Positions 2,297 to 41,712 of a DNA stretch of 64,000 bases are shown one piece after another. The notes under the pieces were generated by a model. It was not told the origin of the DNA. It did not search any database and worked only from the letters and a program-made list of their open reading frames with translations. Both the position numbers and the translations under genes were made by a program. The stretch lies in the NCBI GenBank assembly GCA_963708075.1, contig OY970194.1, forward strand, positions 6,304,001 to 6,368,000, read 5' to 3'. The DNA is from Sedimentisphaerales bacterium (GTDB taxonomy: Bacteria > Planctomycetota > Phycisphaerae > Sedimentisphaerales > Anaerobacaceae). Within the stretch, counting starts at the first letter, position 1, and each line of letters begins with the position of its first letter.

Positions 2297-3492
2297 TATT
2301 TTCGCGGCTCGACGGAGCGTTTCGCCCTCAGGGACAACCCGAATCCGATGAACAGAAGCACCGACAGCAGCCCAAGGCTAGCCCCGTAGAGGAATGTCAC
2401 CCGGGGCGAGAATCGCTCCCAGAGAAATCCTGCCAGCAGACCGCCGGGCAGGGCGGCCAGACCCGTGGCCGTGTGGAATGTCCCCAGGGCGGTCGCCTTC
2501 ATACCCTCGCGGGCCAAGTCGGCCACAAGGGCTCGCTGGGTCCCATCGATCGCCGCCTTGTACCCTCCGTACAAGGCAAAGAGGATCACGAACGCCACCG
2601 GGGAACTGAAGAAGGCAAAGCCGGCCGCCGTGAGGACAAACAGAAGATATCCGAACACGATCACCTTTTCCCGGCCGATCTTGTCCGAGAGGATGCCCAG
2701 CGGTGCCGCCAGAATCGCATAGACGACATTGAACATCGCGTATAGCAGGATGGGGGCCGCCTGCGAAAACCTGCCCGGGAAAAGCGTATTGGCCTTGAGG
2801 ACGAAGAACATGTAACTGAAGTTCCCAAGCGCGAAGACGCTGGCGACCAGAATGAACAATATCAGCGGAGCGGACAGGCCGGTGATTCCCAGCTTCAGCG
2901 TGATCTTCTGCGGCTTGCCCCGGGGCTCGGAGACAAAGCGGATGGGGACCAGCGCGGCAAACCCGATGATGCCCGCGATCAGAACGATACGCCGGAAGCT
3001 CAGTTGCAGGAACCAGAACAGAACGAAGGCGACAAGTGTGCCCAGGACGGCGCCGGCCGTCTCCAGCGATCTGTGAATGCCGAACCCCTTGCCCCGCTCG
3101 GTCGTCATGGACTCGGCGATGATCGCGTCCCGCGGCGCGGTGCGCAGGCCCTTGCCCACGCGTTCAAGTCCCGAGTATAGCACGGCGCTGGGCCACGCCC
3201 TCGACGTCGCCAACAGGAGCTTGAATATACTGGATACAAAGTACCCGCCATAAACAAAAAGCTTCCGCTCCCCGGTCTTGTCGGACCAGTAGCCGCAGAA
3301 GATCTTGAGGATGTTGGAAACGGCGTCCCGCAGGCCGCCGACCAGTCCGATGGTTTCGCCGCCGCCGCCCAGCGATTGCAGGAACATCGGGAGGATTGGC
3401 ATGATCATCTCGCTGCTCAGATCGTTCAGGAAGCTGACGATGCTAAGCAGAATGACATTCGGTGATATCCTTTTGCGAGGCGTGTCTTCCAT
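2296..3492 (-). CDS. MFS transporter
   Basis: About 12 hydrophobic segments; MFS motif-A-like GYWSDKTGERK and GILSDKIGREK; GKGLRTAPRDA. Confidence 0.92.
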   Translation of the reverse strand: MEDTPRKRISPNVILLSIVSFLNDLSSEMIMPILPMFLQSLGGGGETIGLVGGLRDAVSNILKIFCGYWSDKTGERKLFVYGGYFVSSIFKLLLATSRAWPSAVLYSGLERVGKGLRTAPRDAIIAESMTTERGKGFGIHRSLETAGAVLGTLVAFVLFWFLQLSFRRIVLIAGIIGFAALVPIRFVSEPRGKPQKITLKLGITGLSAPLILFILVASVFALGNFSYMFFVLKANTLFPGRFSQAAPILLYAMFNVVYAILAAPLGILSDKIGREKVIVFGYLLFVLTAAGFAFFSSPVAFVILFALYGGYKAAIDGTQRALVADLAREGMKATALGTFHTATGLAALPGGLLAGFLWERFSPRVTFLYGASLGLLSVLLFIGFGLSLRAKRSVEPRK

Positions 3493-3528
3493 GCTGATCT
3501 TACCCGAGGCGGCGAACCGCTGTGATGA

Positions 3529-3939
3529 CTACTCTCCCTGCACCTGAACGATCACCCGCCGGCTTCGCGGGCCGTCGAACTCGCAAAAATAGACGGCCTG
3601 CCAGGTGCCCAGGGTGAGACGACCATCGTGAATGAGGACCTGCTCGCTGCAGCCGACGAGCGAGCTCTTGCAGTGCGCGTCGGAATTGCCCTCGGAATGC
3701 TGGAAACCACGGTTGGATCTCGGCACGATCTCGTCGAGAGCCAGAAGGACGTCGTGGACCACGTCGGGGTCGGCGTTCTCATTGATCGTAATGGCGGCGG
3801 TGGTGTGGGGACAGAACACGATGACACTGCCGTTGGTGACGCCCGACTGGCGGACCATCGCATCCACCTGGCCGGTGATATCGACCATCTCCGTCCGGCC
3901 CCGCGTGCTCACGTGGAATTCCGTCTGGACAATCTTCAT
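3529..3939 (-). CDS. yjbQ: YjbQ family (secondary thiamine-phosphate synthase) protein
   Basis: CPHTTAAITINENADP, HSEGNSDAH, LGTWQAVYFCEFDGPRSR. Confidence 0.93.
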   Translation of the reverse strand: MKIVQTEFHVSTRGRTEMVDITGQVDAMVRQSGVTNGSVIVFCPHTTAAITINENADPDVVHDVLLALDEIVPRSNRGFQHSEGNSDAHCKSSLVGCSEQVLIHDGRLTLGTWQAVYFCEFDGPRSRRVIVQVQGE

Positions 3940-23158: not shown

Positions 23159-23511
23159 TATCGTTATGGGACATGCACGTGTCTCGTGATGGAGGACGGG
23201 TACATGCGCACTGGACTTTCGCAGGAGGCATTCTGTCGTGCGCGATGAGAAGTCCCACCGTTGATCTGACAAGCAGGAAGAGGGTACTTGATTTGAATTG
23301 GGCACGTCATCTGCGATTTCTATTGGAAAGGAGGTGAAGAGACGCATCCATTGTGATCTGATGCGTGGGGGGAGCGTCGCGTCGGTGCGGCAGGGCGAGC
23401 GCCCACCGAAGAGCGGAAGGTGCGCGGCATTCAGAATTCCGGTTGGAGGGAATTGTGCCTTGGCGCGTGGTCAAGGGCACGGGACACTATCTTTTGGTGA
23501 GGAGGATCGTC

Positions 23512-26500
23512 ATGTATCGAAAACTGCTTTATGTGTTTGCCTTGGGCTTGGTCTGCACGGTGAGCGTCGCGCAGGCGGCGGACTGGGATCGTGCGGTCTA
23601 CTGGGACGCGCGCTGTCGGACGGGCTGGGCCGACAATGACTCGTCCATCGTCGTGCGGGATGGCTGCGTAGCGGCCGGGTACACGCTTCTGGACGCCGAT
23701 CAGCTCAAGACGTGGATGGACGGCCACATTGCCGATAAGGCATTGAGCGTGGTCGTGCTCGCCCGCGACAATGTCCCCAACACGGTAGTCGAGACACCAG
23801 ACGCGACTTGCACCCTCCGGAAGTATCTGGATGCCGGCGGCAAGATCGTGTTCTATGCGGATATTCCCTTCTGGGACATCGCACATACCGATGGCACGTG
23901 GGACAATCCGCAGACAGCAGCACAAAACGCCATTCTGGGAATCGGCACGGACCTCGTGTGGGACAGCGGCAATACGGTGCAGATCACGGGCGCCGGTGCC
24001 GCGTGGGGGTTGACCGCAACATGGGCCTCCCTCAGGGCAACGCCCGCCTCCAAGGTCAGTGTCGCGCTGGCTACGGATGGTGCCGGTAACGCCGCCGCGT
24101 GGGCAAAGTTCTTCGTCCCCGGCGACTGGTACCGAGGCTTCGTCCGGCTCTACGACCGGCCCGGTCGTCCTCCCGTCGAGGACATCATTCGTGCCGCAGA
24201 GTACCGGGGCCTCGAGGCCTATGGTCCCGTGCCGGCGGATGGAACCGTGGATGTGGTAACCCCCATATTCCGGTGGACGGCCAGTGGCGCCGCCAAGACG
24301 CAAAATGTGTATTTCGGCACGAACCCGGAGCCGGGCCAGGCGGAGTTCAAGATGCCTGTGCCGCCGGTAGCGTCGATATACGTGCAGCCGGTGCTTGAAC
24401 CGGGCGCCAAGTACTACTGGCGCGTGGACGCGGTCGCAGCCGATGGCACCGTGTACCCGGGCAAGGTGTGGAGCTTCACAGTGATGCCGGTGAAGGCGAC
24501 AGTGCCGAATCCGGTCGATGACGCCACCTTCATTGTGGAGAAGCCGACCCTGAGTTGGAAGGCCGGCCAGAACTCGCCCACGCACGATGTGTACTTCGGG
24601 ACGGACCCGAATCTCGTGACTGCCGGTGATGCCGGTGTCTTCAAGGGCAACCAGGCGGAGAACTCTTTTGCCGTTGCCGACGCTCTGGAGCGCAATACAG
24701 TCTACTACTGGCGTGTCGATGAGATCGACGCCATGGGCAACAAGTTCGTCGGCGATGTGTGGAGCTTCACGACCACCCTCCCGGGCCTTGGCACTGCCAA
24801 GCGTCAGGTGTGGGAGAACGTCGGCGGCACGGCAGTGGCCAATCTGCTCAGCGACCCGAACTACCCGTTCTCTCCGAGTTGGGCCGATGAGGTGACGGAG
24901 CTCAGGACGCCGCCCGATTTCGCCGACAACTACGGCGGACGCCTGTCGGCGTGGCTGCATGTCCCGGTCGCCGGCGACTACACCTTCTGGGTCGCCAGCG
25001 ATGATGACTCTCAGTTGTTCTTCGGTTCTCACCCCGGCAAGGCGAAGATGATTGCCGCCGTGTGGGGCTGGACCGCGGATCGGGCCTTCGATTGGCAGGC
25101 CACCCAGAAGTCCGCGACGATGAAGCTGGATGCCGGCGTGTACTTCATTGAGGCCCTCTGGAAAGAAGGCGGCGGCGGCGACAACTGCTCGGTGGCCTGG
25201 CAAGGTCCGGGTCTGCGCAGCAGGTCATCGGTGGCGGCTATCTTGAACCGTCCAGCGACCTGTGGGCTGTGAGTCCGAGTCCTGCCGACGGCGCCACGGG
25301 CGTCTATTTCGCGCCCGAGCTCAAGTGGGGCGCTGCCATGAGCGGCAAAGCGCTGGCTCACGACGTGTACTTCGGCGAGAGCGCATCGGCTGTGACCGGT
25401 GCTACGACCACGTCGAAGGAGTACAAGGGCCGGAAGACCGAGACGTCGTTCAAGCCGGGCGACCTCACGCTTGGCAAGACCTACTACTGGCGTGTGGACG
25501 AGGTCGGCGACCCCAATGAAGGCGTCCTGGGAGATGGCGCGGTCTGGAGCTTCAAGGTTTCGGATTACAGCCTCATCGACGATTTCGAGAGCTATGAATT
25601 CGCGAACGTGGCGCCGAAGGCGCCGATTGGCCTGTGGAAGCTCAACGGCGATCTCGTCGACAGCTCCGGCAAGGGCCATGATGGCAAGATGATTGGCACC
25701 GGCGGTTTCGAGGATGACCCCATTATGGGTAAGGTCCTGAGCCTGCCCGGCGGGGACAACCAGTATGTGGAAATCGGCGCAGTCGGTTCTCAGTGGCAAG
25801 ATGCCGACAACGATTGCCTGCTGGGCCAAGGCCGACCACACGAACATTCCGGACTGGACCCTGATCTTCGGGTTCACCGGGACCGAGGCCGGCGGCGGTG
25901 ACTGCGGCAGCCACTTCAATATCGACGTCATTGGCGGGCCCGGCGGCGTCGGCGCCCATGCCTGGTGCTGGGAAGAGACGATCTTCACGGATCAAGAGTC
26001 TCTCGAGTGGCACCACTATGCCATGACCTATGATGGAACCACCATCAAGTACTATGGCGACGGCCTTGCCAAGGACACCGATACCGGCAAGTCCAATGTA
26101 ATGGATCTGTCGATCCGCGGCGACCGCGTCTTCATTGGCAAGCGTGTAACGGCCGCCAACTCCTTCGCAGGCAACGTTGCGGATGCTCGCATCTACAACT
26201 ACGCACTCAGCCCGCTTGAGATCAAGAGCGTCGCTGGGTACGTTCCCACGAGTTTGCTGCCGGATGCCTGGAAGGGCGATGCCGTTGTGTCGGCGTCTCT
26301 CGCATCCAGCGCCGCCCACGCTGGCGGTCAGTCCCTGCAGCTTAAGTACAACACGCGTGTTGTACCCTGTGCCGGTGCGGCCAGCGTCACTCCGCCGTAC
26401 AAGGATCTGACCCGAGGCGGCGCCAACGCGATCTCGGTGTGGGTCAAGGGCGCTCCCAAGAACTACACCGACTGGCTGTTTGTCGCGGTGGCGGACACCG

Positions 26501-26703
26501 GTGGCGCCATGTTCCTGGCTACCTACAAGGACATGAGCGGTCTGTCGAACGGTGAGTGGGCGAACTGGGTAGTTCCTCTGCAGCTCTTCAGTGCCAACGG
26601 CGTGAAGACGACGTCTGCCGCGAAGGTCGGCGTCGGTGCTTTGGCTGGGCGGCCGGGACCCGGGACGTTCTACGTCGACGACGTCCGGTTGATCAAGAAG
26701 TAG
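23512..26703 (+). CDS. large secreted multidomain protein (YYWRVD repeats, PA14, LamG-like); frameshifts near 25216 and 25787
   Basis: Signal peptide; three P-x-P-x-D...VYFG...YYWRVD...VWSF modules; PA14-like YTFWVASDDDSQL...KEGGGGDN; LamG-like WHHYAMTYDG...DARIYNYALS. Confidence 0.85.
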
Positions 26704-28263: not shown

Positions 28264-28791
28264 ATGACGACCGAACGCATCGCCCTGGCACGATTCATTC
28301 GTGACATTCCGGACTGGCCGAAGAAGGGCATCCTGTTCCGGGACATCACGCCACTGTTGGCCGATCCGCAGGCCTTCCCGGCCGCGATCGACGCCATGTG
28401 CGAGCCATTCGAGGACGCGGGCGTTGAGTATGTCGCCGCTGTCGAGGCTCGCGGATTCATCTTCGGAGCCGCCGCGGCCGCCAGGCTTCGCGCCGGCTTT
28501 GTCCCCATCCGCAAGAAGGGCAAGCTGCCCTGGCAAACGGAGAGCGCCACCTACGAGCTCGAGTACGGCGTGGACACGCTGGAGATGCACCGCGATGCGC
28601 TGCGCCCGGGAGCGAAGGTGCTCATGGTGGATGATCTCCTCGCCACCGGCGGCACGATGCGAGCGGCCTGCCACCTCGTCGAAAAAGTCGGCGGCAAAAT
28701 CGTCGGCGTCGCCTGTCTCGTGGAACTCAAAGCCCTCAACGGCCGAAAACGCCTCACCGGCTACGACGTCCACGCGGTCATCTGTTATTGA
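28264..28791 (+). CDS. apt: adenine phosphoribosyltransferase
   Basis: PDWPKKGILFRDITPLL, EARGF, RKKGKLP, YELEYG, VDDLLATGGT. Confidence 0.97.
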   Translation: MTTERIALARFIRDIPDWPKKGILFRDITPLLADPQAFPAAIDAMCEPFEDAGVEYVAAVEARGFIFGAAAAARLRAGFVPIRKKGKLPWQTESATYELEYGVDTLEMHRDALRPGAKVLMVDDLLATGGTMRAACHLVEKVGGKIVGVACLVELKALNGRKRLTGYDVHAVICY

Positions 28792-29669
28792 CTGCCACTT
28801 TTTCTTTGCCCCGTCACGACACGGTCGTGGCCGATCATGTCTTTGTCCACCTTGATGGACGGGAATAGACCCGTCTTCTCCAGAAGCTCGCGGACGGCGG
28901 GGCCCTGGGTGTAGCCGATCTCCAGGAGCAGGGCGCCGTCGGGCTTCAGGAAGCGGCCCACCTGCTCGCTGATTCTGCGATAGATGTCCAGGCCGTCCTG
29001 CCCGCCGTACAGGGCGAGCCGAGGCTCGTAATCCTTCACGTTTTTCTCCAGTTCCTCGTATTCGGCGGCGCTGACGTAGGGCGGATTGCACGCGATCAGG
29101 TCGAACTGCGTCACGTCGAGCGGCGGGAGCAGCGGCTCAAACAGGTCGCCGTGGAGCAGCTCGATCCGGTCTTCGAGTTGATACTTTTTGATGTTCCTGG
29201 CGGCCACGCCCAGTGCGGCCTCCGAGAGATCCGTGGCGACGACGCGTGCGTCCGGCACGTTCTTCGCGACGGCGACCGCGATTGTGCCGCAGCCCGTGCA
29301 CAGGTCGCAGACGTGGCGGGGCCCCGTGCGCTGCCGGAGAAATTCGATGGCCCGCTGCACGAGCAGCTCGGTCTCCGGCCGGGGAATCAGGCAGTCGGGC
29401 GTGACCTCGAATTCAATGGAGTAGAACTCCGTCCTGCCGACGAGGTAGGCGATGGGCTCGTGCTGGCCGGCACGCTTGACCAGCTCTCGCAGCTTGGCCA
29501 AGTACTCCTCCTCGACGACGCGGTTGTATTGCGTGTAGAGCTCGATCCGTTTCAACCCGAGCACGCTGGACAGCAGAAGCTCTGCGCTGAGGCGGGGTGC
29601 GTCCACCCCTTTCTGCGTCAGGTACTCCGTCGTCCACGTCAGGAGCTTCTGAATCGTCCATTCACTCAT
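28785..29669 (-). CDS. prmC: release factor glutamine methyltransferase
   Basis: EPIAYLVG, LIPRPETE, DLCTGCG, NPPYV. Confidence 0.96.
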   Translation of the reverse strand: MSEWTIQKLLTWTTEYLTQKGVDAPRLSAELLLSSVLGLKRIELYTQYNRVVEEEYLAKLRELVKRAGQHEPIAYLVGRTEFYSIEFEVTPDCLIPRPETELLVQRAIEFLRQRTGPRHVCDLCTGCGTIAVAVAKNVPDARVVATDLSEAALGVAARNIKKYQLEDRIELLHGDLFEPLLPPLDVTQFDLIACNPPYVSAAEYEELEKNVKDYEPRLALYGGQDGLDIYRRISEQVGRFLKPDGALLLEIGYTQGPAVRELLEKTGLFPSIKVDKDMIGHDRVVTGQRKSGSQ

Positions 29670-30352
29670 TCGTGTTGCCTCGCCACAAGAAGATTGTCCT
29701 GCCGGACGATGCGAATGGCGAAGTCATACTTGTCGATTTCCAGCGCCATCTCGACGTCCTGCGGATAGCAGTGCGGCGGATCGGGCTCGGCCAGCCTGGC
29801 AATCTCGCCGCTCTGCAGCACGAGTGTCCGGATCGCGTGCGTATCCTGTTGGCGGCCCTGCAGCAGGTTCCGCAGGTACAGGGCGCACAGCTCATCCTCA
29901 TCCGTGCGTATCAGCCCGTTGTATCCCATGGCCACAATCGTGACCAGCGGGGGGGCCTCGTCCAGGATGGCCCGCGCCGTGGCCTTGGCCGTGACGAGCG
30001 ATCCGGCATAGATCGCCGTCGCGCCTGTCGCCGCCTCGACCCCAACAGTCCCCGCCCGCGTCGACTGGATGACGACCTTATCTTTCAACGGGGCTCGTGC
30101 CATATCATGGGGCGAATTGCCGAAATCAAAGCCCTCCGGCCGCTTGCCGTCCACCTCGCCTACGCACACCTCCCCAACGCCGTTATCCCGAAGTCGCAGT
30201 GCATCATCCGGCTCGGCAACCATGACAATCCGGCTGGCCCCACGCGCCAGCGCAACCGCCGCCGTCGTGAAAGCCCGGAAAACATCTATGATGACTACCG
30301 TTCCCCGGGCCCGTCGTGCACCTTCAATGAGACTCTCTATCCTGATCTCCAT
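29666..30352 (-). CDS. 2-phosphosulfolactate phosphatase (ComB) family protein
   Basis: VVIIDVFRAFTT, GFDFGNSP, STRAGT, EDELCA. Confidence 0.9.
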   Translation of the reverse strand: MEIRIESLIEGARRARGTVVIIDVFRAFTTAAVALARGASRIVMVAEPDDALRLRDNGVGEVCVGEVDGKRPEGFDFGNSPHDMARAPLKDKVVIQSTRAGTVGVEAATGATAIYAGSLVTAKATARAILDEAPPLVTIVAMGYNGLIRTDEDELCALYLRNLLQGRQQDTHAIRTLVLQSGEIARLAEPDPPHCYPQDVEMALEIDKYDFAIRIVRQDNLLVARQHE

Positions 30353-30507
30353 AGAACTCCAAAGAATGCTACCCTGCTACCAACGCCGAGAATACACCAC
30401 CCCCGCCCCCAGGCAAGCAGAATTCCCCGCTGCCTCAGTCTCGCCCGCCCCCAAGCGACATGCCTGCCTGTGCCATAAATCACTGCCTGTAAAACAGTTA
30501 CATTCAG

Positions 30508-31251
30508 ATTGGCTTTGTTTCGCACGGTAGCCGCGGCCAGAAATTGGCTTTGTTTCGCGCAATCCGCCTGTCGTGTAGGGTGGGCTGTGCCCACCATTGT
30601 CCCAGCAGCAAATTGGCTTTGTTTCGCACACCACCCAGCCTGGAAATTGGCTTTGTTTCGCAAAGACCCTCCTTGGCCCTCCCGTAGGGTGTGCCATGCA
30701 CACCATCTGCCTGACAGGGGAGATTGGCTTTGTTTCATACCGGCCTTTGTTCGTAGTGACGCCGCAAGGCGTTTTTTCCGACGCCTGACAGAATTGGCTT
30801 TGTTTTACGCGCAGGCACGATCCGCACTTTCTCTCATAACCCTCTTTCCGACCAGCAGTTAGCATCCACCCTACCTCCTGCAGATTGGCTTTGTTTCGCA
30901 CGATAGCCCCAGCCCTGGTGGGCGGCCCCCCGACAAATTGGCTTTGTTTGGCACAATCAGGTCTTTCGTTCCCGCCCAACAAGCCTGGGCAAATTGGCTT
31001 TGTTTCGCACAGCACCTCCTCAGCCCCCTCTTGCGGTCCGCCGGGCAAAGGAATTGGCTTTGTTTTGCACAGCCGCCCGTCTGGCAATTGGCTTTGTTTC
31101 ACAGAATCAGCCACGCGGTTGTCTCCCGCCCGCTTGCCTGTCTCCTGCAATTGGCTTTGTTTCGCATAATCGGCTCGTTGGCTGTCCATGTTATTGTCAG
31201 GAGCAGAGCAACAAAGCAATCTCGACGCCGGGAATGGAATTGGCTTTGTTT
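30508..31251. repeat. array of 13 direct ATTGGCTTTGTTT repeats with variable spacers (non-CRISPR)
   Basis: Exact 13-mer starts at 30508, 30543, 30612, 30646, 30723, 30793, 30884, 30937, 30993, 31053, 31087, 31150 and 31239. It is commonly extended to AATTGGCTTTGTTTCGCA. Confidence 0.95.
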
Positions 31252-31382
31252 TACAGAATCAGCCATGCGTGGGTCCCCGGCTCTCTTCGTGTTGCCCCGA
31301 TTGGCAAAGATTTGGGCCTCGCTGACACGGTCTCCTATCGCCTCTTTCCTATCCAGGTTCTGTTGTATTTTGTTTAATGAAT

Positions 31383-31411
31383 ATCATACTCAGTGCGGCA
31401 ATATTAGTCAA
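31383..31411 (-). promoter_or_regulatory. sigma-70-type promoter pointing into the repeat array
   Basis: Minus strand TTGACT-N17-TATGAT in an AT-rich context. Confidence 0.7.
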
Positions 31412-31668
31412 GTGAAAAATCCGGAAATCTTCTCAGCCGCTGATCTGCCGGGACTCGCTGACGATTGCCGGTCACTGACAACCGATCTTCATCCCCAGAT
31501 TGCGCAGATTTCACAGATTCAAAAAGGGATTGCTGTGTGAGCTTAGACGCTTGTGCCACGGTGACTTATGTTATCACTACTTTAGGCCACCGAACATGTC
31601 CCGCCTGACAAATAGCACTTCAGTGGCGTCCTGACGTGCGTTTCAACACCTTCACGCAAGAAAGACCC

Positions 31669-31871: not shown

Positions 31872-34346
31872 ATGACAATTGACTACAGACTGGATGATCT
31901 CGGCTGGTTCGAATTTGAACAGCTCGTTCAGGCTCTCGTGAAGTCACACCTTGGTATGGGGATAGAGGCATGGGGCGGACATGGTGATTGGGGTCGCGAC
32001 GCCTATTTCGAGGGTGGCCTTCGATACCCGGCAGGCGAAGAGACTGAAGGCCCATTTGTATTTCAGTGCAAGTTCATTGAATCGGCAAATGCAGCAGGGG
32101 CAAAACCCAGGAAGCCTATTCTCAAAGCGGCGAGACAAGAGGCGGGGCGAATCAGAGAGCACCTCAAGAGTGGCAACTGGACTAGAGCACCGAGATGTTA
32201 CGCTCTATTTACTAACGCGCCATTTACACCTGCGATGCGCGACACGGCGCGCAGTGTGTTTGCCGATGTCCTTCCAGGCACAAGTGTCTTGATTCACGAC
32301 GGGAACGACATTTGTCAGTGGCTTCGGAATACCCCGCAGATTGCACGCAGCTTTCCTCAGCTACTTTCGCTTCGGGATCTCCAGGAGCTTCTGCGAGATG
32401 CAGTTCATTCAGACATCATTGCTCGCAGCGAACAAGCGATAGTTATGGCCCAGACGTACGCGCAGGCTTTCGTGCCCACGAGCGCTTACGCTTTGGCACA
32501 AGATAAACTTGCCGCCAATGGTTTTGTTGTCTTGGAAGGTCCACCGGAGATGGGAAAGACAACAATCGGGCGCATTATAGCTTTAGCTCAGATAGCCTGT
32601 GGATGGGAGGGCATCGAATGCCGCTCGCCTGCTGACATCCTGAAAATGTATCGGCGTGACCGGCGTCAAGTCTTTGTCGCTGATGATTTCTTCGGTCGAA
32701 CCGAATACGAGCCGATGCGTGTGAGCGAATGGCAAGCGGAGCTTGGATACATCCTACCGCTGCTTGGCCGCACACATTGGCTAATCTTGACGTGTCGTGC
32801 TCACCTGCTGCAAATGGCCAAGGCTAGCCTCGACATCGCAAATCAGCACAACCGGTTTCCAGAGCTTGGTGAAGTCGTCGTGAATGCGGGGAGTCTGAGT
32901 CCCTTGGAAAAGGCGCGTATTGTATATCGCCATGCAAAGGCGGTCGCTTTGGGATATTCAGCAAAAGAGGTAATAAGAACACATGCTACACAGATTGTCG
33001 GGCATCCACACTTCACACCCGAAAGAGTACGTCGGCTGATAGAAGAGCTTTCGGTGGAGTATAACGACAAACAGGGGGGATTGATAACAGAGTTGGTAGA
33101 GTCCAGAACGGGTGTTGCTCACTGCAAAGAATCTCTAGAGTTCATGACGCGACTCCAGAAGGTTCTTAGTAATCCAACACAACAGATGCGAGTTAGCTTC
33201 CGCAGACTCCCAGCCTGTCATCGCTGGCTGCTCTTCTCGCTCCTTGAAATAGACCAAAATACGAATATCTTCGAGGTAGGTTATCGTGAATTACGGGCCC
33301 GATATGATGCTTTATGTCCTGCCGAGGTTCATGAGCGATACGAACATGTACTTACTGAATTGACAGAGGCGTTTGTCCGGAAGTCGACTGGCTCATTTGG
33401 TGACAGAGTGAATTGGATCCATCCGAGTTGCCGTGATTTGAGTATCGATGAATTATCAGAGCACGCCCGCGACCGAGCACAATTCTTGGCAAATTGCGAC
33501 GAGTCTGGACTTACCCTAGCAATTTCCCTGGCAGGAGGTGCGGAAGGCCTGCGGCAATTGCCGCTTCTGCAAACAGAAAGCGATTGGAAGTGTTTCGTCA
33601 TTCACGCTCGCCAACTCGTCCAGGAGAAAGCCCACGTCTTTTGTGCGATCTGGCAAAGCTATCAGGTTATAAAGAAACAGATTGAGCCTAAGCCCGCACT
33701 GCGCGGTGCAGTTGCACGTCTGACCAAAATGATAAGAGAAGAGTTGGCGGATCTTGCTGCTTCGAAGCTGGGGCAATCAGGTTATTCTGATTTGGAATCG
33801 CTCAAAATGTTTCCTCATATCTGTGATGAGTTGCTGATCTCCCCTTCAATTGACTTCACTGGAGCGTGGGCAGATTGTGCGGAGGATGTGAAACGCTGGG
33901 TAGAGGAGCCGGACGTGATATGGGAAGATAGTAGAGTCCCGGCACGAGTTGCCACCTTTTGGAAAATCCTGAACGAATCCTTCCCCGCTTTTTTCGCAAA
34001 CGCTGATATACGACAACAGCTAAACGATATGCTCGATGCAATCCTAGATCGCACGGCGACTGACGACAATTCGTCTTACGACCCCCCGAAGGATTCAGAT
34101 GAGGCCGCAAATCGCGCAAGTGGTCTTGAGAACCAGCACAAGTCCTTTAAGAAACTCGCCGAGATTCCCATGTGGACTCAACGTCAGCAGAAAGCGTTGA
34201 GACAGTGTGCGGCTCACTTCAAAGCTGAGGCCGATTCATTATGGGAAGAGGTTCCTTCCGAGCAGGACTGCGATGACTGGAGGGATCAGCATCCCCCGTT
34301 ACCCGACGTAGACGTCAACATCGAGGGTCTCTTTTGTGACCTATGA
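31872..34346 (+). CDS. restriction-endonuclease-like domain fused to a STAND-class (nSTAND3-like) P-loop NTPase
   Basis: N-terminal EFEQLV...DWGRDA...VFQCKF (Mrr-like E/D/QxK nuclease pattern); Walker A LEGPPEMGKTT; Walker B region VFVADDFFG; ILTCR; HFTPE. Visibly more AT-rich than flanking genes. Confidence 0.8.
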   Translation: MTIDYRLDDLGWFEFEQLVQALVKSHLGMGIEAWGGHGDWGRDAYFEGGLRYPAGEETEGPFVFQCKFIESANAAGAKPRKPILKAARQEAGRIREHLKSGNWTRAPRCYALFTNAPFTPAMRDTARSVFADVLPGTSVLIHDGNDICQWLRNTPQIARSFPQLLSLRDLQELLRDAVHSDIIARSEQAIVMAQTYAQAFVPTSAYALAQDKLAANGFVVLEGPPEMGKTTIGRIIALAQIACGWEGIECRSPADILKMYRRDRRQVFVADDFFGRTEYEPMRVSEWQAELGYILPLLGRTHWLILTCRAHLLQMAKASLDIANQHNRFPELGEVVVNAGSLSPLEKARIVYRHAKAVALGYSAKEVIRTHATQIVGHPHFTPERVRRLIEELSVEYNDKQGGLITELVESRTGVAHCKESLEFMTRLQKVLSNPTQQMRVSFRRLPACHRWLLFSLLEIDQNTNIFEVGYRELRARYDALCPAEVHERYEHVLTELTEAFVRKSTGSFGDRVNWIHPSCRDLSIDELSEHARDRAQFLANCDESGLTLAISLAGGAEGLRQLPLLQTESDWKCFVIHARQLVQEKAHVFCAIWQSYQVIKKQIEPKPALRGAVARLTKMIREELADLAASKLGQSGYSDLESLKMFPHICDELLISPSIDFTGAWADCAEDVKRWVEEPDVIWEDSRVPARVATFWKILNESFPAFFANADIRQQLNDMLDAILDRTATDDNSSYDPPKDSDEAANRASGLENQHKSFKKLAEIPMWTQRQQKALRQCAAHFKAEADSLWEEVPSEQDCDDWRDQHPPLPDVDVNIEGLFCDL

Positions 34347-34376
34347 TATCACCTTACGGCGTCACTACGAGCGGGC

Positions 34377-35889
34377 TCAGATATAGACCTTGTCCATCAT
34401 TCTGGGGAAGGGGATGCACTGGCGGATGTGCTTTTCGCCGGTGATCCAGGCGACGGTTCGCTCGACGCCGAGGCCGAAGCCGCCGTGCGGGACGGAGCCG
34501 TACTTGCGCAGGTCCAGGTACCAGTCGTAGGTTTCGGGGTTGAGGCCCTGGTCTTTGATCTTGGCCAGGAGGCGGTCGTAGTCGTCCTCGCGGACGGAGC
34601 CGCCGATGATCTCGCCGAAGCCGGCGGGGGCCAGCAGGTCGAAGTTCTCCACGACCTTCTCGTTCTGGCGGTCGGTCCGCATGTAGAAGGCCTTGGCCTC
34701 GCGCGGGTAGTGCGTCACGAAGACCGGCTTGTCGTGCATCTGGGAGATGATCGTCTCGTCGGAGCCGCCGAGGTCCTTGCCCCACTCGAACTCGGCCGCA
34801 AGTTGGGCGTGCTTCGGGTTGTTCTCGATTCGCGTATTGACCTCTTCCAGGTCGCCTCGCAGCTCGATCAGCTCGGCGGCGATCTTGTCCTTCTGCCACT
34901 GCTTGATCTGGCCCGCCTGCTCCTTTTCGAGCTCGGCGATCCGGCCTTCGATCCGCTGCTTTTCGCTCTGCAGCTCGCTCAGCTCGCGGGCGAGGAACTC
35001 CTTCGCCTTCGGGCCCTTGAGAATCTCCACGGCTTGCGTGTACGTCAGGCGGTAGAAGGGCGGCGCGATTCGCTCCAGGGCCGGGATGTCCGCTCCGAGC
35101 GTCTGCAGCTCGCTGCGGTTGTCCTGCAGGACGCGGGCGGCGATGGAGGAGACGAGCCCCTCGGCCAGGTGGAGCAGGCCGTCGAGGTCGATGAACGCGA
35201 CCTCCGGCTCGACCATCCAGAACTCGGTCAGGTGCCGGCGGGTCTTGCTCTTTTCCGCGCGGAAGGTCGGGCCGAAGCAATAGACCCGGCCGTAAGCTCA
35301 TCGCCGCCGATTCCAGGTAGAGCTGGCCGGTCTGCGTCAGGTGCAGCGGCCGGCCGAAGTAGTCCACCTCGAACAGCGACGTCTGGTCCTCGCCGACGAT
35401 GGTCGTGAAGATCGGCGTATCGACGAGGATGAAGCCGTTGTCGTTGAAGTAGCGGCGGATCGCGTCGATCACGGTGTGGCGGACCTTGCCGATGGCCCAC
35501 TGCCTCTGCGAGCGCAGGTGCAGGTGGCGGTGCCTCATCAGGAATTCGACGCCGTGCGGCTTGGGCGTGATCGGATAGCCCTCGGCCGCAGCGACGACCT
35601 GGGCGCCGGTGACCGACATTTCGTAGCCGCCGACGCTTCGCTCATCGGCCCGGATCGTTCCCGTCACCGACAGCGATGACTCCTGCCCCAGCCGCTTAAG
35701 CTGCTCGAAGACCTCGTCAGGCACCTTGCCCTTCTCCACGATACACTGGCACAGCCCGGTGCCGTCGCGGATGATGAGAAACAGAATCTTGCCGCTGGCC
35801 CGGCTGTTATACAGCCAGCCGTGAAGTGTTACTTCCTGCCCGACATGATCCTTCAGTTCATTGATATAGACGTTCCTGCTCTCGGTCAT
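34377..35889 (-). CDS. asnS: asparagine--tRNA ligase; one frameshift near 35294
   Basis: [65 protein letters not shown]. Confidence 0.94.
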
Positions 35890-36005: not shown

Positions 36006-37085
36006 TCATGGAGCCTTTATACCATATTGCGGCCAGAGGGGATAGTCGTCGGCCTTGCCTTGGTCTGATCCGTTTTCGTCAGTCCGATTTAGGCCCCTGG
36101 CGTAAAGGAGGAACGTGCCGTTGGACACTCTCCTATATACGAAGGTTCGTTCCGTGAACGGGTCGATCAGGGCCTGCTCCGGGACGAGCGTCTTGATCTC
36201 GTCGAGGCTGTCGGGCAAGCGGCTGTTCGCGTTGTAGTAGTGCTGCAGTCCCACCAGGACGCGCACACCCCGGCGGAGCGACAGCAAACGCAGATAGTAC
36301 TCCGCAATGCGTTGCTCCAGTTCCTCCTCGCGAGGAAATATGCCTAGGAACTTCTGCCCCCATTCCTCGATCCGATCCAGCGGAGCCTGTTTCGCCAGAT
36401 AGATCTTGGTGAAGATGGGCAGAGCCTCCGCCAGCGGCGCATATGCCTGCTCAAAGTCGTTGTCCAGGTCGCCTGCCATGGCCTCGGCTGTTCTAAGAAG
36501 CTCTTGCGGCGCGTCCGGGCGCATGACTGACTCGCAAAGTGTGCCCCATGCACTTGCCTCGATCTCCATGCCCGCACAGAAATCGGCCGGTGTAAGCTGC
36601 TGCCGAAGATGGCGTCCCATCTGGACCATACAGCGCAGCTTCTCGGCAGCGGCATCGATGCGGCCGTCGCCGATGTCCTTGGCGGCCGCACTGGCCAGCG
36701 CGCGGGCCCATTCTCGCATCGGGACGAAACGCGCACCATAATCCTTGGAGCCTAGCTCGGCGAGCGACAGGGGGAACCAGCAGAAGTCCATCTTTGATGC
36801 CTCGATCAGCATCCCAAAAGTGGCAGGGCCCAGGTTTGGATCGGCCGCATTCCCTGCCGGTACATAGGTGGCGGCCAATCGATCGTAGATCGTAGCGGCG
36901 TTCTTCTCAGGAGGCAGGGCGCGACGGGCATCCATCGCCGCGATCCGCTGCGCCAGCGACTTCCGAGACGGACGTGGGCCAAGAAAGACAGCCAGTGCCA
37001 ACAGGCATGCCAGGAGCACTATGCCAACAAGAACGTATCGCCTGTTGACCCATGACTTCTGCGGACTGCGATCATTCGACTTCAT
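36006..37085 (-). CDS. membrane-anchored hypothetical protein, tandem paralog 1 (GspG-like C-terminus)
   Basis: N-terminal TM segment; NAATIY; C-terminal LPDSLDEI...DPFT...FVYRR...FLLYARGLNRTDENG. Confidence 0.8.
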   Translation of the reverse strand: MKSNDRSPQKSWVNRRYVLVGIVLLACLLALAVFLGPRPSRKSLAQRIAAMDARRALPPEKNAATIYDRLAATYVPAGNAADPNLGPATFGMLIEASKMDFCWFPLSLAELGSKDYGARFVPMREWARALASAAAKDIGDGRIDAAAEKLRCMVQMGRHLRQQLTPADFCAGMEIEASAWGTLCESVMRPDAPQELLRTAEAMAGDLDNDFEQAYAPLAEALPIFTKIYLAKQAPLDRIEEWGQKFLGIFPREEELEQRIAEYYLRLLSLRRGVRVLVGLQHYYNANSRLPDSLDEIKTLVPEQALIDPFTERTFVYRRVSNGTFLLYARGLNRTDENGSDQGKADDYPLWPQYGIKAP

Positions 37086-38173
37086 GGAACCTCCTGGCCA
37101 GTTGGCTGAGGAGACGTCATACGACGCGGAAGCCAGATTTGGAAATCATCGGCCTTTTCGTGGTGCTGTCCGTTGTCATCTCGCCGGTTCGGCCCTTTCG
37201 AATAAAGAAGGAACTCGTCCGCCTCCCTTCGATAGATGAACATCTGTCCGGTGTAGGGGTCGATCAGGGCTTGCTCAGGGACGAGTGTTCGGATCTCCTC
37301 CAGGCTGTCCGGCCAGCGCCCATTCGCGTTGTGGTAGCGCCGCAGTCCCACCAGGAGGCGCGCGCCGCGGCGCTGCGACAGCAGACGCAGATAGGCCTCC
37401 TCGATCCTTTGGCCATCGCTCTTTTCCCCTCGCGATCGCCACCGGTTCTCCATCTGTTGTCGCAGAGTCCATTCTGCCGAGATGGTTCTCCAAACGAGAG
37501 GCTGGACCTCCAGAGTCAATTTCGCGACTTCTTTATAGTTGTTCTCAAGCTCCCGGGGCATCGCCTCGGCCATGCTCAGAAGTTCCTCCGAGGCGTCCGG
37601 CTGCATGACAAACTCGCCTAACGGAGTCCAAGCCCGCCCCTCGATCCCCGTGCCCGCCAGGAAGTCAGCCAGGAGGGCCTGCTGTTGAAGATGGTCTCCC
37701 ATCCGGACAAGACAAAGCAGCTTCTCGGTGGCGGCATCGATATGACCATCGGCGACATCCCGCCGGACGGCATTGACGAGCACGCCGGCCCACGCCCACA
37801 TGGGGTTAATGTGCTTCATATGGTTCATGTAGCACTGCTGGCCGGGCGACAGCGGGAACCAGCAGGATTCCACTTTCGATGCCTCGATCAGTCCTGAGAG
37901 GGCGGCGGGAGTAAGCTTTGTATCAGGTGACTCGCCTGTCAGCGTCTTTGTCGCGACGAGTTGGTCGTAGATCGTGGCGGCATTCTCCTCGGGCGCCAAG
38001 GTATGGGCAGCGTTGATCTCCGCGATGCGCTGCGCCAGCAACTCGCGGGATGGGCTGTGGCTGAAGATGAGAACCACCGCCGCGATTCCAAGGCAAGCCA
38101 GAAGAACGATACCGAGCAGGATGTATCGCCTGTTCGCCCGCAATTTCTTCAGATGCCCATGGCCTGGCTTCAT
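37082..38173 (-). CDS. membrane-anchored hypothetical protein, tandem paralog 2
   Basis: Same motifs as paralog 1 (NAATIY, CWFPLS, WPDSLEEI, LYSKGPN); 4-bp overlap with paralog 1. Confidence 0.8.
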   Translation of the reverse strand: MKPGHGHLKKLRANRRYILLGIVLLACLGIAAVVLIFSHSPSRELLAQRIAEINAAHTLAPEENAATIYDQLVATKTLTGESPDTKLTPAALSGLIEASKVESCWFPLSPGQQCYMNHMKHINPMWAWAGVLVNAVRRDVADGHIDAATEKLLCLVRMGDHLQQQALLADFLAGTGIEGRAWTPLGEFVMQPDASEELLSMAEAMPRELENNYKEVAKLTLEVQPLVWRTISAEWTLRQQMENRWRSRGEKSDGQRIEEAYLRLLSQRRGARLLVGLRRYHNANGRWPDSLEEIRTLVPEQALIDPYTGQMFIYRREADEFLLYSKGPNRRDDNGQHHEKADDFQIWLPRRMTSPQPTGQEVP

Positions 38174-38185
38174 TGTGCCTCCGGA

Positions 38186-38883
38186 CTATGACTTGCGCAG
38201 CATGACTGCTTCCAGGTTCTTGAACTGCTTTTCCTGCAGCCATTCCCAGATGCCTCGCCGGGGCCAGATTCCATAATCATCCCCGGCGGGCTCCTTTCTG
38301 CCGTTGGGTCCCGTGCTGTAGAGAAAGAACGCGTCACCGTCCGGGCGACGCAATGCAGCTTCTCCCTTGCGGCATCGAGCCGGCCCTGATCCAGATCGTC
38401 CAGGGCGGCCGCCATGATTGACCACGCCACCTGACGCATCACGCTCGTTCGCTTAAAGGTGGTGCTCCGCATCCATCTCATGGCCGCAACGGGTCCGGCG
38501 CCGTCGCAAAGTGCCGGGAAGAAGCACCGTGGCCGCGTGGCGGCCTCCAGGAGCACTCTCATACGTTCTTCCTCGCTGAACAGCAGAGAAGAAATAGTGT
38601 TGGAGTCCGTCGGCAGGCCCGCGGTAGGCACTCTCAGTTCCTTCCGCAGATAAGCCGTCAGCAGCCGGTTGTAGATCGTGGCAGCGTTCTCCTCCGGCGG
38701 CAGGACGCGGGCCGCATAGATGGCCGCGAGGCGATGCTCAACCGATCTCCGTCGCCACCCAGGGCCGAGACAGAGGACGGCAAGAATCGCCAACCCCAAA
38801 ACCACGGCCACAACGATCCATCGCCCGCGCCGAGGCCGTTTGAACCTTCCGGAGTCCCTGTTCTCTCGTGTTCGCTCCGCCAT
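38186..38883 (-). pseudogene. tandem paralog 3 with a large internal out-of-frame deletion
   Basis: The N-half (TM, NAATIY, REKLHC) joins near 38345, in another frame, directly to RRPDGDAFFLYSTGPNG. The central block present in the paralogs is absent. Confidence 0.7.
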
Positions 38884-38994
38884 GCCTGTGCTCCGAATGA
38901 CCACCTGCGGGAATAGATCATATGCGGAAAACTGGTGGCAGGAAAGTCCTTTTTGTTGCAGGCAAACCTGTCATCAAGACTTGGCGCGCGCAGG

Positions 38995-40209
38995 CTATTC
39001 GTTGGTATCTTGCTGTCCTGCTTCGGGGTCTCGGCCTCGCGAGGGCCAGATGGGCCAGTCGTCCGGGCCGTTCGGATCGTGTTGGCCGTTTTCGTCGATG
39101 CTGTTCCTGCCTTTCGAGTAGAGTGAGAATACGTCGGCCGCTGGTTTGTAGACGAACGGGCCGCAGTTGAGGGGATCGGTAAGAACCTCTTCAGGCAGCG
39201 ACGCCTTGATCTCGTTCAGGCTCGTGGGCCAGTGGCCGGTCGTGCTCCTGTATCGTTTCATCGCGATGAGGGTCCGGATCCCTCGCCCGGTCGCTATGCA
39301 ACGAAGATCCGCCTGGCGCGTCGTCTCATCGGTATCAGGCCCCTTAAGTGTCCCGAACACGGCATGATTGAAGCGGTATCGAAAGATGTGCGCACTGATG
39401 CGATCCAGGGGACCAAGGCCCTCCATCATCCTTTGTTCCTTGAGCCGGCTGACTTCCCGGATCTCCTGGATATCCCTGGCTGTACCGTCCGCTATTGGCA
39501 AGGGCATCGCTTCAAGCCTCCGGAGATGTGCGTCCGTTGGGTCGTCTTCGAGGATGAACCGGGCCATGCCCTCCAAAGCCAGTCTCTGGATGGAACTACC
39601 GACGAAGTGATCTGTAGGCACTGGTTGCTGCAAGAGGTGGTCCCCGATCCGAAGAAGGCATTGCCATTTCACCATGGCAGCGTCAAGGCGTCCCTCGGCG
39701 ATATCATTGTTCGCCGCCGCGCGTAGCAGGAATCCCCACCAACGCATTGGCGCCGCCCGATCCATGGAACTCGTGTCTCTGATATCGATGCTGATGGGGA
39801 ACCGGCATTTCTCGAATCGTGCGGCCTCCAGGAGTCTGTCGATGATATACCGGTGCTCCTTGAGCCATGCATCCGTCTCGGGCTGATCCCTGCTGAGCCA
39901 GGGCCCATGAAGCACGCGGTCAGAGAGCAGCGGCTCGCCGGCTTGAGAAGAGGCGTCTGACAACGACGTAGCCTTGGAATCGCGCAACAATTCGTTGTAG
40001 ATCATCGCCGCATTTTCGGAATCCGGGATCGCACGGGCGGCTTCTATTTCCGCGAGGCGATCATCGGCACTGTGCGACTTTGGCCAGAAGGCGGCCGCTC
40101 CAAGGATGCAGACGACGATGGCCGCAAGAGAGATAATAGCGGCGACGAGCCACACGCGTTTTCTGCGTCTGGCCTGTGGCTTGCCGGCGATTACAGGGCG
40201 ATCATCCAT
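38995..40209 (-). CDS. membrane-anchored hypothetical protein, tandem paralog 4
   Basis: TM segment; NAAMIY; CRFPIS; HWPTSLNEI...DPLN...FVYK...LYSKGRNSIDENG. Confidence 0.8.
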   Translation of the reverse strand: MDDRPVIAGKPQARRRKRVWLVAAIISLAAIVVCILGAAAFWPKSHSADDRLAEIEAARAIPDSENAAMIYNELLRDSKATSLSDASSQAGEPLLSDRVLHGPWLSRDQPETDAWLKEHRYIIDRLLEAARFEKCRFPISIDIRDTSSMDRAAPMRWWGFLLRAAANNDIAEGRLDAAMVKWQCLLRIGDHLLQQPVPTDHFVGSSIQRLALEGMARFILEDDPTDAHLRRLEAMPLPIADGTARDIQEIREVSRLKEQRMMEGLGPLDRISAHIFRYRFNHAVFGTLKGPDTDETTRQADLRCIATGRGIRTLIAMKRYRSTTGHWPTSLNEIKASLPEEVLTDPLNCGPFVYKPAADVFSLYSKGRNSIDENGQHDPNGPDDWPIWPSRGRDPEAGQQDTNE

Positions 40210-40456
40210 GGCTGCGTCTCCTATCTGAGCATACCTCAGGGACAGACGCATGGAAAGATGGTTTCTTCGAGGGAATCGCTGTCGTTTGGACGCGGTTCTC
40301 TTCGTGCCGGAGCACAGGGGTGTTGGCTATTATCGGCCCGGCTGTTGGCGTGGTGGGTGGGGGGATAGAAATCGTGTGGTTTTCCTCAATTGCCCCCGCC
40401 TCGACGCCGATAATACGGATGAAAATGGAAAATCATAGAACCTAAGGAGACCGAGT

Positions 40457-40792: not shown

Positions 40793-40997
40793 TTGATCCG
40801 GCCTGTCGGATGCCTGAGGCCGGACCAGTGTAGTCGCTTGGATGCAAGGGATCGGGCAAAGGCACGCATGGGTCGTGCCTGCCCGTTGCCCGTGGAGCGG
40901 GTCACGAACATCGCTCGAAGGACCGATATTCGTCATCTGCTCGCGGGATATATGGGTATCCGCTGGGATACCGTATTCGGGTGTGGTCTTTTGTCAG

Positions 40998-41712
40998 ATG
41001 GATATAGACGTTCTGCACCAGGTCGAGCAGGTTCTTGGACATGAATTCACCGATGAGGCGTTGATCGCCAAGGCCTTCACGCACTCCTCCGCGGTCGACA
41101 ACCGGCTCGAGAGCAACGAGCGGCTCGAATTCCTCGGTGATGCGGTTCTCTCCCTGGTGATTTGCCAGAGCCTGTTTGAGAAATTCCGCGAGTACCCGGA
41201 AGGCGAGCTGACGAAGATGAAGAGTATGCTGGTTTCCCGCGGGACCTGCGCGGGTGGCCCGCCGCATGGGCCTGCCGACGTACCTGTCGGTCGGTAAGGG
41301 TATGGTCTCCAGCAAGGCGTTGCCCGGGTCGCTGGCCGCCGGTTTGCTGGAGGCGGTCATCGCCGCCATCTACACCGACGGGGGATTCGAGGCGGCCCGC
41401 GGTTTCATCCTGCGCAATTTCGCCCCGCTCATCGAGCAGATGAATGCCGAGGAGGCGCACGGCAACTACAAATCCCTTTTGCAGCAGTATGCCCAGGAGC
41501 AGTTCAACGTGGCTCCGATGTACGTGCTGCTGGACGAGAAGGGTCCCGATCACAACAAATGCTTCGAGTCGGAAGTGGTGGTCGACCAGCGGCATTTTCC
41601 CAGCGCCTGGGGGGCCAACAAGAAGGAGGCGGAGCAGAAGGCCGCCTACAACGCCCTGGTGGAGCTGGGGGTCTTGAACCGGGCCGAAGTGCTGGAAGAC
41701 GGGTCGTACTAA
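40998..41712 (+). CDS. rnc: ribonuclease III; frameshift near 41253
   Basis: NERLEFLGDAVL signature, LEAVIAAIY, dsRBD NYKSLLQ...NKKEAEQKAA. Confidence 0.94.

Follow-up and report, generated by a model that had tools for sequence, protein, structure and literature searches.

The sponge RNAs CsrB/RsmZ and CrcZ are promoter-led and non-coding and carry many copies of one short motif, and in CRISPR loci the repeats measure about 23-50 nt and the spacers are nearly constant in length. The NIME arrays of Neisseria are described as dRS3 20-bp inverted repeats separated by RS elements, and are proposed to be recombination substrates (PMC1797815). In BIME-1 elements, a linker in which an IHF site is frequently present separates two conserved units (PMC3333891). 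The cosB site of phage lambda has the layout R3-I1-R2-R1 and is bound by IHF and by TerS, the latter through a winged helix (PMC4856287). Multicopy putative IHF/HU sites and heptamer elements have been reported from Geobacter in a paper whose available portion does not mention a link between motif and gene (PMC2700814); these elements may overlap with the box or the spacer classes treated below.

The array described here lies in a window (the whole stretch of DNA that was analysed, 64,000 nucleotides) of a 7.5-Mb genome (G000), for which the names of homologues suggest a placement in Phycisphaerae/Sedimentisphaerales. It is one of a family of mosaic arrays that is real, linked to a gene and apparently undescribed. 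It works most like the Neisseria NIME and BIME-1, and its core recalls lambda cosB, but it lacks a defining feature of each of these and is filed under no known system. The best explanation is that it is a gene-less copy of a dispersed element consisting of a box, a promoter, a gene of an unnamed family (here called STGP) and an array of A-rich motifs. The parts of the array and its neighbours, in window positions, are as follows.

28785-29669, same operon: prmC, next after the PF04029 gene
29666-30352, minus strand: downstream host gene of the 2-phosphosulpholactate phosphatase family (PF04029), with an orthologue in 21 of 23 same-genus genomes
30389-30416, minus strand: sigma70-like host promoter of the downstream genes, TTGCCT-N16-TATTCT, outside the element; a similar site lies here in relatives
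30475-30499, unstranded: second box, immediately after the final motif and 84 bp before the host promoter (profile, 14.7 bits)
30508-31251, minus strand: motif array, 13 copies of about 18 nt with flanks, (T)GYG-AAACAAAGCCAAT-T (profile from 291 genomic copies)
30575-30596, plus strand: REP-like GTAG hairpin in a spacer (5 matches outside arrays)
30684-30704, plus strand: REP-like GTAG hairpin in a spacer (17 matches outside arrays)
30749-30774, plus strand: REP-like GTAG hairpin in a spacer, common to 9 spacers of other arrays (34 matches outside arrays)
30793-30896, minus strand: core unit, 91 bp start to start, consisting of motif, 22 nt, IHF-like box and motif (profile from other genomes, 25.5 bits, offset +35)
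30836-30860, unstranded: 25-bp box of the core unit, TAA-N19-TTA, with arms resembling the IHF consensus (pattern and profile), a putative IHF/HU binding site
31383-31411, minus strand: predicted sigma70-like promoter of the array leader, TTCACTTGAC-N17-TATGAT class (TTGACT-17-TATGAT, 10/12)
31544-31568, minus strand: upstream IHF-like box, 25 bp, TAA-N19-CTA, degenerate (recognised by eye; fails the strict pattern)
31872-34346, plus strand: nSTAND3 NTPase, divergent upstream neighbour and candidate anti-phage gene (PF20720; PADLOC PDC-S73, E 1.9e-30; GC 0.51)

The spacer hairpins are termed REP-like for their likeness to GTAG-type REPs. The 13 exact copies of ATTGGCTTTGTTT (starting at 30508, 30543, 30612, 30646, 30723, 30793, 30884, 30937, 30993, 31053, 31087, 31150 and 31239) all lie on a single strand, at exactly the spacings of 35, 69, 34, 77, 70, 91, 53, 56, 60, 34, 63 and 89 bp that the earlier note had given; none of 100 shuffles reached 14 matches, and the chance expectation at up to two mismatches is 0.67 matches. 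The minus-strand TTGACT-N17-TATGAT site claimed at 31411-31383 is likewise present, with 10 of 12 consensus positions, and three promoter-like sites lie in 2 kb as compared with 1.1 in shuffles. This type of leader also stands at the head of other arrays, the same class is present in low-GC relatives, and boxes equivalent to that at 31544-31568 precede the promoters of other arrays and of linked STGP genes. Several gene-less leaders match, by eye, the leader and first codons of the STGP gene; the leader in the window shows no such decayed gene start, and the 25-codon frame present there has no evident relation to one. Between the array promoter and the upstream box is a short run of 9-nt repeats of the CAGATTGCG/CAGATTTCA type (31495-31525), resembling repeats that occur before GxxExxY genes.

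Several other features of the window were noted. The low-GC nSTAND3 gene (31872-34346) is inserted between asnS and the array. The asparaginyl-tRNA synthetase gene occupies two frames (34354-35889 and 34377-35216, minus strand), which implies a frameshift or a sequence error near 35200, and an RNase III-like gene near 40842-41712 may be similarly split. Four tandem paralogues (36006-40251, minus strand) encode membrane-anchored proteins ending in 'P.SL.E...DP...F.Y'; the third is in pieces, and the member that was scanned had no Pfam match. A large secreted repeat-protein gene extends across three frames (23365-26703, plus strand: 23365-25272, 25269-25901 and 25765-26703).

Like a CRISPR locus, the array consists of a leader followed by direct repeats with spacers, and it has an IHF-like site upstream. 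Unlike CRISPR, its repeats have a core of only 13 nt (about 18 nt with flanks), its spacers vary from 21 to 78 nt and are self repeats common to several arrays, not unique foreign sequences, and no match to cas1 (PF01867) was found in the genome, which is 92.8% complete. The view of the earlier note that this is not a CRISPR array is borne out.

The genome contains 218 exact copies of the motif (296 with one mismatch), clustered in 42 intergenic arrays of two or more copies, each array being one-stranded; the 41 further arrays, like the linked protein family and the core unit, go beyond the earlier note. The motif and arrays of it are found in related genomes as well. Gene-less copies outnumber gene-bearing ones: 32 of the 42 arrays, including that of the window, have no linked gene. 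The gene downstream is co-oriented with the array in 32 of 42 cases (30 of 41 in a cruder count). A sigma70-like site lies 12-114 bp past the last copy in 15 of 25 co-oriented gene-less arrays as compared with 0 of 31 windows inside arrays. Insertion sequences are found in or beside several arrays; at one locus (G000:C1:4778158-4780454) an insertion sequence splits a gene-linked array whose STGP gene is frameshifted.

The spacers had been described as mostly unrelated, which proved wrong: five of nine testable spacers in the window match spacers of other arrays, and four of nine match repeats elsewhere in the genome. Among all arrays, 159 of 228 testable spacers fall into families common to several arrays, with their order changing from array to array. 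The host-genome part of the spacer search suggested in the earlier note returned self repeats, with 120 of 228 spacers matching repeats outside the arrays (GTAG hairpins and heptamer runs). By this host-genome comparison, the spacers consist of native REP-like and heptamer repeats and not of foreign DNA. The spacings in G000 overall have no helical phasing (T 10.2-10.5, p 0.15-0.76, 209 gene-less units), and the idea of phasing is retained solely for the core unit and for short tandem cores.

These arrays resemble the Neisseria NIME in that a short conserved repeat alternates with variable families of spacers (about 20-200 bp) in dynamic intergenic arrays, in that array length varies between genomes, and in that other repeats and insertion sequences are taken in. 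They differ from it in that the motif is non-palindromic and one-directional, not a 20-bp inverted repeat, and in having a promoter leader, a protein gene linked in cis and an IHF-like core. With BIME-1/RIB and BIME-2 of E. coli they have in common a mosaic intergenic character, GTAG-type hairpins (here in the spacers) and a genome with 13 matches to Y1 transposases. The BIME or REPIN unit is an inverted REP/iREP pair, whereas the unit here is a direct A-rich repeat in which REP-like hairpins are passengers, and the arrays here lie 5' of host promoters with a promoter and gene of their own. Compared with the BIME-1/RIB linker, the box here is at a fixed place and, judged from its letters, partly IHF-like.

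The gene linked to the motif belongs to an unnamed family, the proteins of which start with 'ANRRNAxKSTGP[RK]T' ('NAxKSTGPRT', hence STGP) and form 23,063 clusters at 50% identity, with up to 22 matches per genome. G000 has nine STGP genes, 50-94% identical, each of which sits between unrelated host genes and continues into an array; one carries a frameshift, and an insertion sequence interrupts its array. Among 80 STGP loci from four phyla (including Alphaproteobacteria, Acidobacteriota and Verrucomicrobiota), 61 have the motif behind the gene, in sense orientation (117 copies, by a looser pattern), and there was no copy upstream of the gene in 87 kb. The gene was present in 27 of 30 motif-rich relatives as compared with 3 of 30 motif-poor ones, kin that are not independent, and outside the genus in 6 of 7 motif-rich as compared with 3 of 30 motif-poor genomes. 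Three relatives depart from this pattern: G033 (87% complete) has 184 motifs and no STGP gene that could be found even by profile, G011 has 21 motifs and no gene found, and G006 has only a gene fragment at a contig end. Two variations in placement were seen. A single inverted copy lies downstream of the gene start in 14 of loci L112-L191 (for example L115, L128, L132 and L138), usually together with a sense copy; the third site of lambda cosB is also inverted. In one subfamily (L196, L197, L209) the motif stands about 30 bp upstream of the gene start and not downstream.

The motif is kept as nucleotides, because the sense frames of gene-less arrays are mostly closed and codon scores are negative. 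Nucleotide-level selection, as the earlier note had it, is supported, and in the gene-linked loci the motif is read in any frame (11, 23 and 19 copies in frames 0, 1 and 2) or lies past the stop codon (64 copies). The STGP protein itself has no Pfam, NCBIfam, PHROG or PADLOC family and no solved relative, and its Atlas clusters are unnamed. No description of the motif or of the STGP family was found in the open literature, with most subscription journals outside this coverage, which is consistent with the undescribed repeat family that had been proposed.

The site that the array occupies in the window was compared among relatives. Upstream of the same host promoter, the motif is present in 5 of 21 relatives (two strict, three variants). 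Relative G013 has an array there with a different leader and different spacers; G018 and G023 have a core-like unit alone, its box 93-95 bp upstream of the host promoter; others have toxin-antitoxin-like or unrelated genes, including toxin-antitoxin-like gene ends, recognised by eye, upstream of the PF04029 gene in four relatives (L051, L058, L060, L062). Judged by eye, the site upstream of the PF04029 gene is an insertion hot spot. When the 3 kb preceding each of the 32 gene-less arrays were examined, 7 had a PADLOC match (4 clear, 3 weak or generic) and 6 a transposase, these being counts with no background rate from Pfam searches of 78 of 89 candidate frames and PADLOC searches of 28 proteins.

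The core unit was defined from 480 distinct motif-to-motif units taken from all fetched loci. Of the 96 units that measure 89-93 bp, 79 contain a box of the YAA-N19-TTR type, which almost without exception begins at +34 to +37 relative to the first motif; units of any other length rarely contain one. The geometry is fixed while the sequence drifts: from AT-rich to GC-rich genomes, the DNA between motif and box shifts with genomic GC and the distances hold. A profile trained on other genomes alone and then run on G000 found 20 box units, 19 of them at +34 to +36, with lengths of 89-92 bp (12), 81-82 bp (7) and 77 bp (1); units of 98-102 bp occur in some relatives. Length steps of about 10 bp suggest helical turns, the outer classes being few and related. 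In other genomes, 97 short core spacings include 44 of 10 bp and 31 of 11 bp, with differing linker letters. Among the 32 gene-less arrays, 18 have one core unit (as in the window, at 30793-30896), one has two and 13 have none, so that 31 of 32 have at most one box unit (permutation p 0.007). No box unit is present in the 10 gene-linked array pieces of G000; in relatives, the unit is often found immediately behind the gene.

The E. coli IHF consensus is WATCAANNNNTTR. The arms of the box match it partially (mode 6 of 9 positions in the right arm and 5 of 9 in the left), and G000 has three genes of the HU/IHF family (PF00216). Over the whole genome, the loose 25-bp palindrome shows no enrichment (214 sites, as compared with 438 in a reversed control), and with 37 sites near arrays the weight falls on its local concentration and fixed offset. 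An RNA hairpin in the box was rejected for lack of covariation: 67 non-redundant modules gave neither covariation across the box nor a consensus structure with RNAalifold. The box unit is narrower in range than the STGP gene family, because a search of 301 genomes of the phylum yielded the strict unit in only 2, both of this order.

An AlphaFold2 model of STGP (pLDDT 90) consists of two short helices at the N terminus and of a long helical hairpin. A fold search with this model returned generic coiled coils alone (best Z 8.2), with small terminase absent among the top 50 matches. A four-copy model scored 0.75 as compared with 0.01 for the best control, with at least 90% of contacts shared between runs and partner pLDDT of at least 73; among solved pairs 20 of 30 pass the mark applied, and among single chains 1 of 23, counts that hold roughly here on account of a custom alignment and four copies. 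In the model, contacts involve two distinct faces of the hairpin and residues 1-41 lie outside the interface, so that STGP is predicted to pack side by side, ring- or filament-like, with a 41-residue basic arm free.

Residues 2-45 of STGP match a module of phage proteins (99% probability, 55% identity, 44 columns), and the likeness stops at residue 45. Proteins with this module precede a gene of the terminase-large type in 11 of 22 viral loci (a phrog_2 match in one of two tested), and 4 of 9 aligned phage members match PF05119 (small terminase), a family that STGP itself does not match. At nine phage loci (L198, L200, L204-L208, L210, L213), small-terminase-like proteins that combine the STGP arm, a four-cysteine motif and a PF05119-like tail, and which PHROGs lists as family unknown (phrog_26872), lie immediately ahead of terminase large genes. 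In one family (f41) of the phylum, the STGP hairpin has a single-copy homologue that lacks the N-terminal arm, and no sense motif was found downstream of it in five fetched loci. This pairing of arm loss with motif absence is suggestive only, the one full-length copy fetched from the same family (L219) also having no downstream motif. At L216, L217, L220 and L221 (about 3100-3900), the armless homologue was seen by eye at a fixed place after exosortase-like and before fatty-acid-synthesis-like genes. It is possibly a domesticated form.

We consider the chances about even that the array is a BIME/NIME-like DNA docking array for its own STGP protein, bent by IHF/HU. The array would act mainly as double-stranded DNA. 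A host IHF/HU protein may bend the 25-bp box and draw the two flanking motifs together, an STGP oligomer could bind these and further motifs through its N-terminal arms, and the complexes formed may hold or pair arrays and favour ectopic exchange between them, by which the element would spread and its spacers would be shuffled. The complexes may also mark the junction between the promoter of a host operon and variable cargo. The docking array is favoured by the position of the motif (behind the gene in 61 of 80 loci, never upstream), by the presence of the gene in 27 of 30 as compared with 3 of 30 relatives, by the fixed offset of the box, the single box unit per array, the lack of covariation and the short spacings of 10 or 11 bp, and also by bare core units at host promoters, shared spacer families, the oligomer model and the phage-module match. 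It is weakened by the unphased spacings in G000, the derivation of the length classes 10 bp above and below from few, related units, the partial IHF match, the 0 of 10 gene-linked pieces with a box unit and the 2 of 301 phylum genomes, by the 184 motifs of G033 without a found gene and the failure to find element ends or an enzyme, and by promoter-like sites at 23 of 32 gene-less arrays, which would be superfluous for a site acting purely as DNA.

That the array instead yields a multi-site sponge or scaffold RNA, a promoter-made transcript showing single-stranded A-rich motifs to an STGP oligomer or to a host RNA-binding protein, is unlikely. Three classes of promoter-like leaders, predicted by pattern, point into those 23 arrays (12 sigma70-like, 9 ECF-like and 2 sigma54-like, the classes being assigned from their consensus sequences). 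The promoter-like leader, the repeated short motif and the sigma54-like character of some leaders recall CsrB/RsmZ and CrcZ, and oligomers packed side by side could bind RNA as well as DNA. The motif is always in the sense of the linked gene, an orientation that descent alone would explain. In 40 of 42 arrays the sense strand of the spacers is rich in G (+0.21, as compared with +0.04 in other intergenic DNA) independently of the replichore, but the skew is reversed in G033 (-0.29) and G035 (-0.21). Unlike CsrB/RsmZ and CrcZ, the arrays have no Rfam match or conserved fold, occupy 42 loci per genome, have a length-constrained core and derive from the 3' end of a gene. No excess folding was found relative to shuffles (z -0.11 for the window transcript, mean z -0.28 over 220 spacers), the core conserves length and not pairing, and bare core units abut a host promoter with no recognised leader (array 4 of G000; relative G018). 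An RNA role is thus weakened by the fold and skew tests. Among the options raised in the earlier note, a protein-binding scaffold or recombination-site array fits better and a processed multi-unit ncRNA fits less well, because the core keeps its length and box position and no base pairs, and the spacers and transcript fold like shuffles.

Some other roles for the arrays were rejected. Avoidance of Rho does not hold as a general trait of the family, since the G skew is reversed in two relatives, and for a replichore-oriented signal (KOPS/Chi-like) the sense strand would have to be the locally G-rich strand more often than in 16 of 42 arrays. A one-way terminator on the opposite strand was rejected, since the hairpins of the motif are no stabler than those of shuffles and have no covariation; a terminator scan was uninformative, its positive control giving 18 of 120 as compared with 15 of 120 in mid-gene positions.

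It is improbable that the arrays are function-less mosaic debris, in which gene conversion copied remains of the tails of STGP genes from one repeat-rich intergenic hot spot to another and also kept the motif uniform. The range of copy number within one genus (about 20 to 1193), the make-up of spacers from common genomic repeats, the insertion sequences at several arrays, and the orthologous site, where the motif is present in 5 of 21 relatives alone with differing leaders and spacers, would be expected of debris. The persistence of the motif and of its position behind the gene over four phyla, the constant core length between AT-rich and GC-rich genomes despite sequence turnover, and the single core per array, which random copying would not predict, argue against it. 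The alignment of nine gene-bearing copies, inspected by eye, revealed no element ends, terminal inverted repeats, target duplication or enzyme. Of the genome's 13 Y1-transposase and four tyrosine-recombinase matches, none is tied to the motif. Retro-mobility is disfavoured, as the genome has one reverse transcriptase and shared copies include DNA upstream of the promoter.

The phage-module match raises a further explanation, quite improbable in our estimation: that STGP is a host mimic of the small terminase and the arrays are chromosomal cos-like sites, so that an STGP ring on motif, IHF and motif, like lambda TerS on R3-I1-R2 in cosB, would draw the large terminase of a phage onto host DNA, with packaging interference or transduction of the element and the genes downstream. 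The 44-column match to proteins encoded just before terminase genes would fit such a mimic, as would the many divergent STGP paralogues and the defence-like genes upstream of several arrays. Small terminases have a free arm plus a hairpin, the layout predicted for STGP. The core unit is also comparable to cosB, in that repeated putative protein sites flank an IHF-like site and the linked protein has a small-terminase module. In cosB an IHF site lies between two TerS sites (PMC4856287). The arrays differ from cosB in being chromosomal and multicopy, with no known cosN-like site or large terminase, and no winged helix is seen in STGP. The likeness to phage proteins ends at residue 45, the motif is missing from all 11 terminase-linked viral loci, the strict core unit has no match in the viral collection, and no match was found among annotated phages or plasmids. 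No large terminase was found in G000 (no phrog_2 match), and no STGP gene lies beside one there, unlike in a phage packaging module.

A protein-coding low-complexity repeat is highly improbable, even with a 280-codon minus-strand frame (30377-31219) open over 12 of the 13 copies, a sense frame open through 7 of 8 gene-linked arrays and a similar end peptide in 7 of 8 intact STGP genes, since only 4 of 27 gene-less arrays keep a sense frame open (2 of 27 for the antisense strand), all three sense frames of the window array have negative codon scores, the 280-codon frame has no Pfam, NCBIfam or PHROG match, and the motif lies in all frames or past the stop. The earlier note was right in arguing against a protein repeat here; the three frames that it cited are all used, unevenly (6, 6 and 1 copies).

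STGP is one of the largest unnamed protein families and is linked here to a defined nucleotide motif with fixed geometry on the DNA, and its arrays are a mosaic intergenic family that differs from BIME and NIME in travelling together with a gene and a promoter of its own. Many of the 'hypothetical proteins' of Phycisphaerae with KQSQ, ETKP or NKPN tails are explained as read-through of a nucleotide element. In several phyla, a huge family of small-terminase-like ring proteins and dozens of chromosomal, IHF-bent, cosB-like docking arrays might even capture the viral packaging motor onto host DNA when a phage infects, providing decoy defence and phage-powered gene transfer from the arrays, a prospect that we regard as rather improbable. 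If the terminase link is functional, it would represent a new kind of interaction between phage and host.
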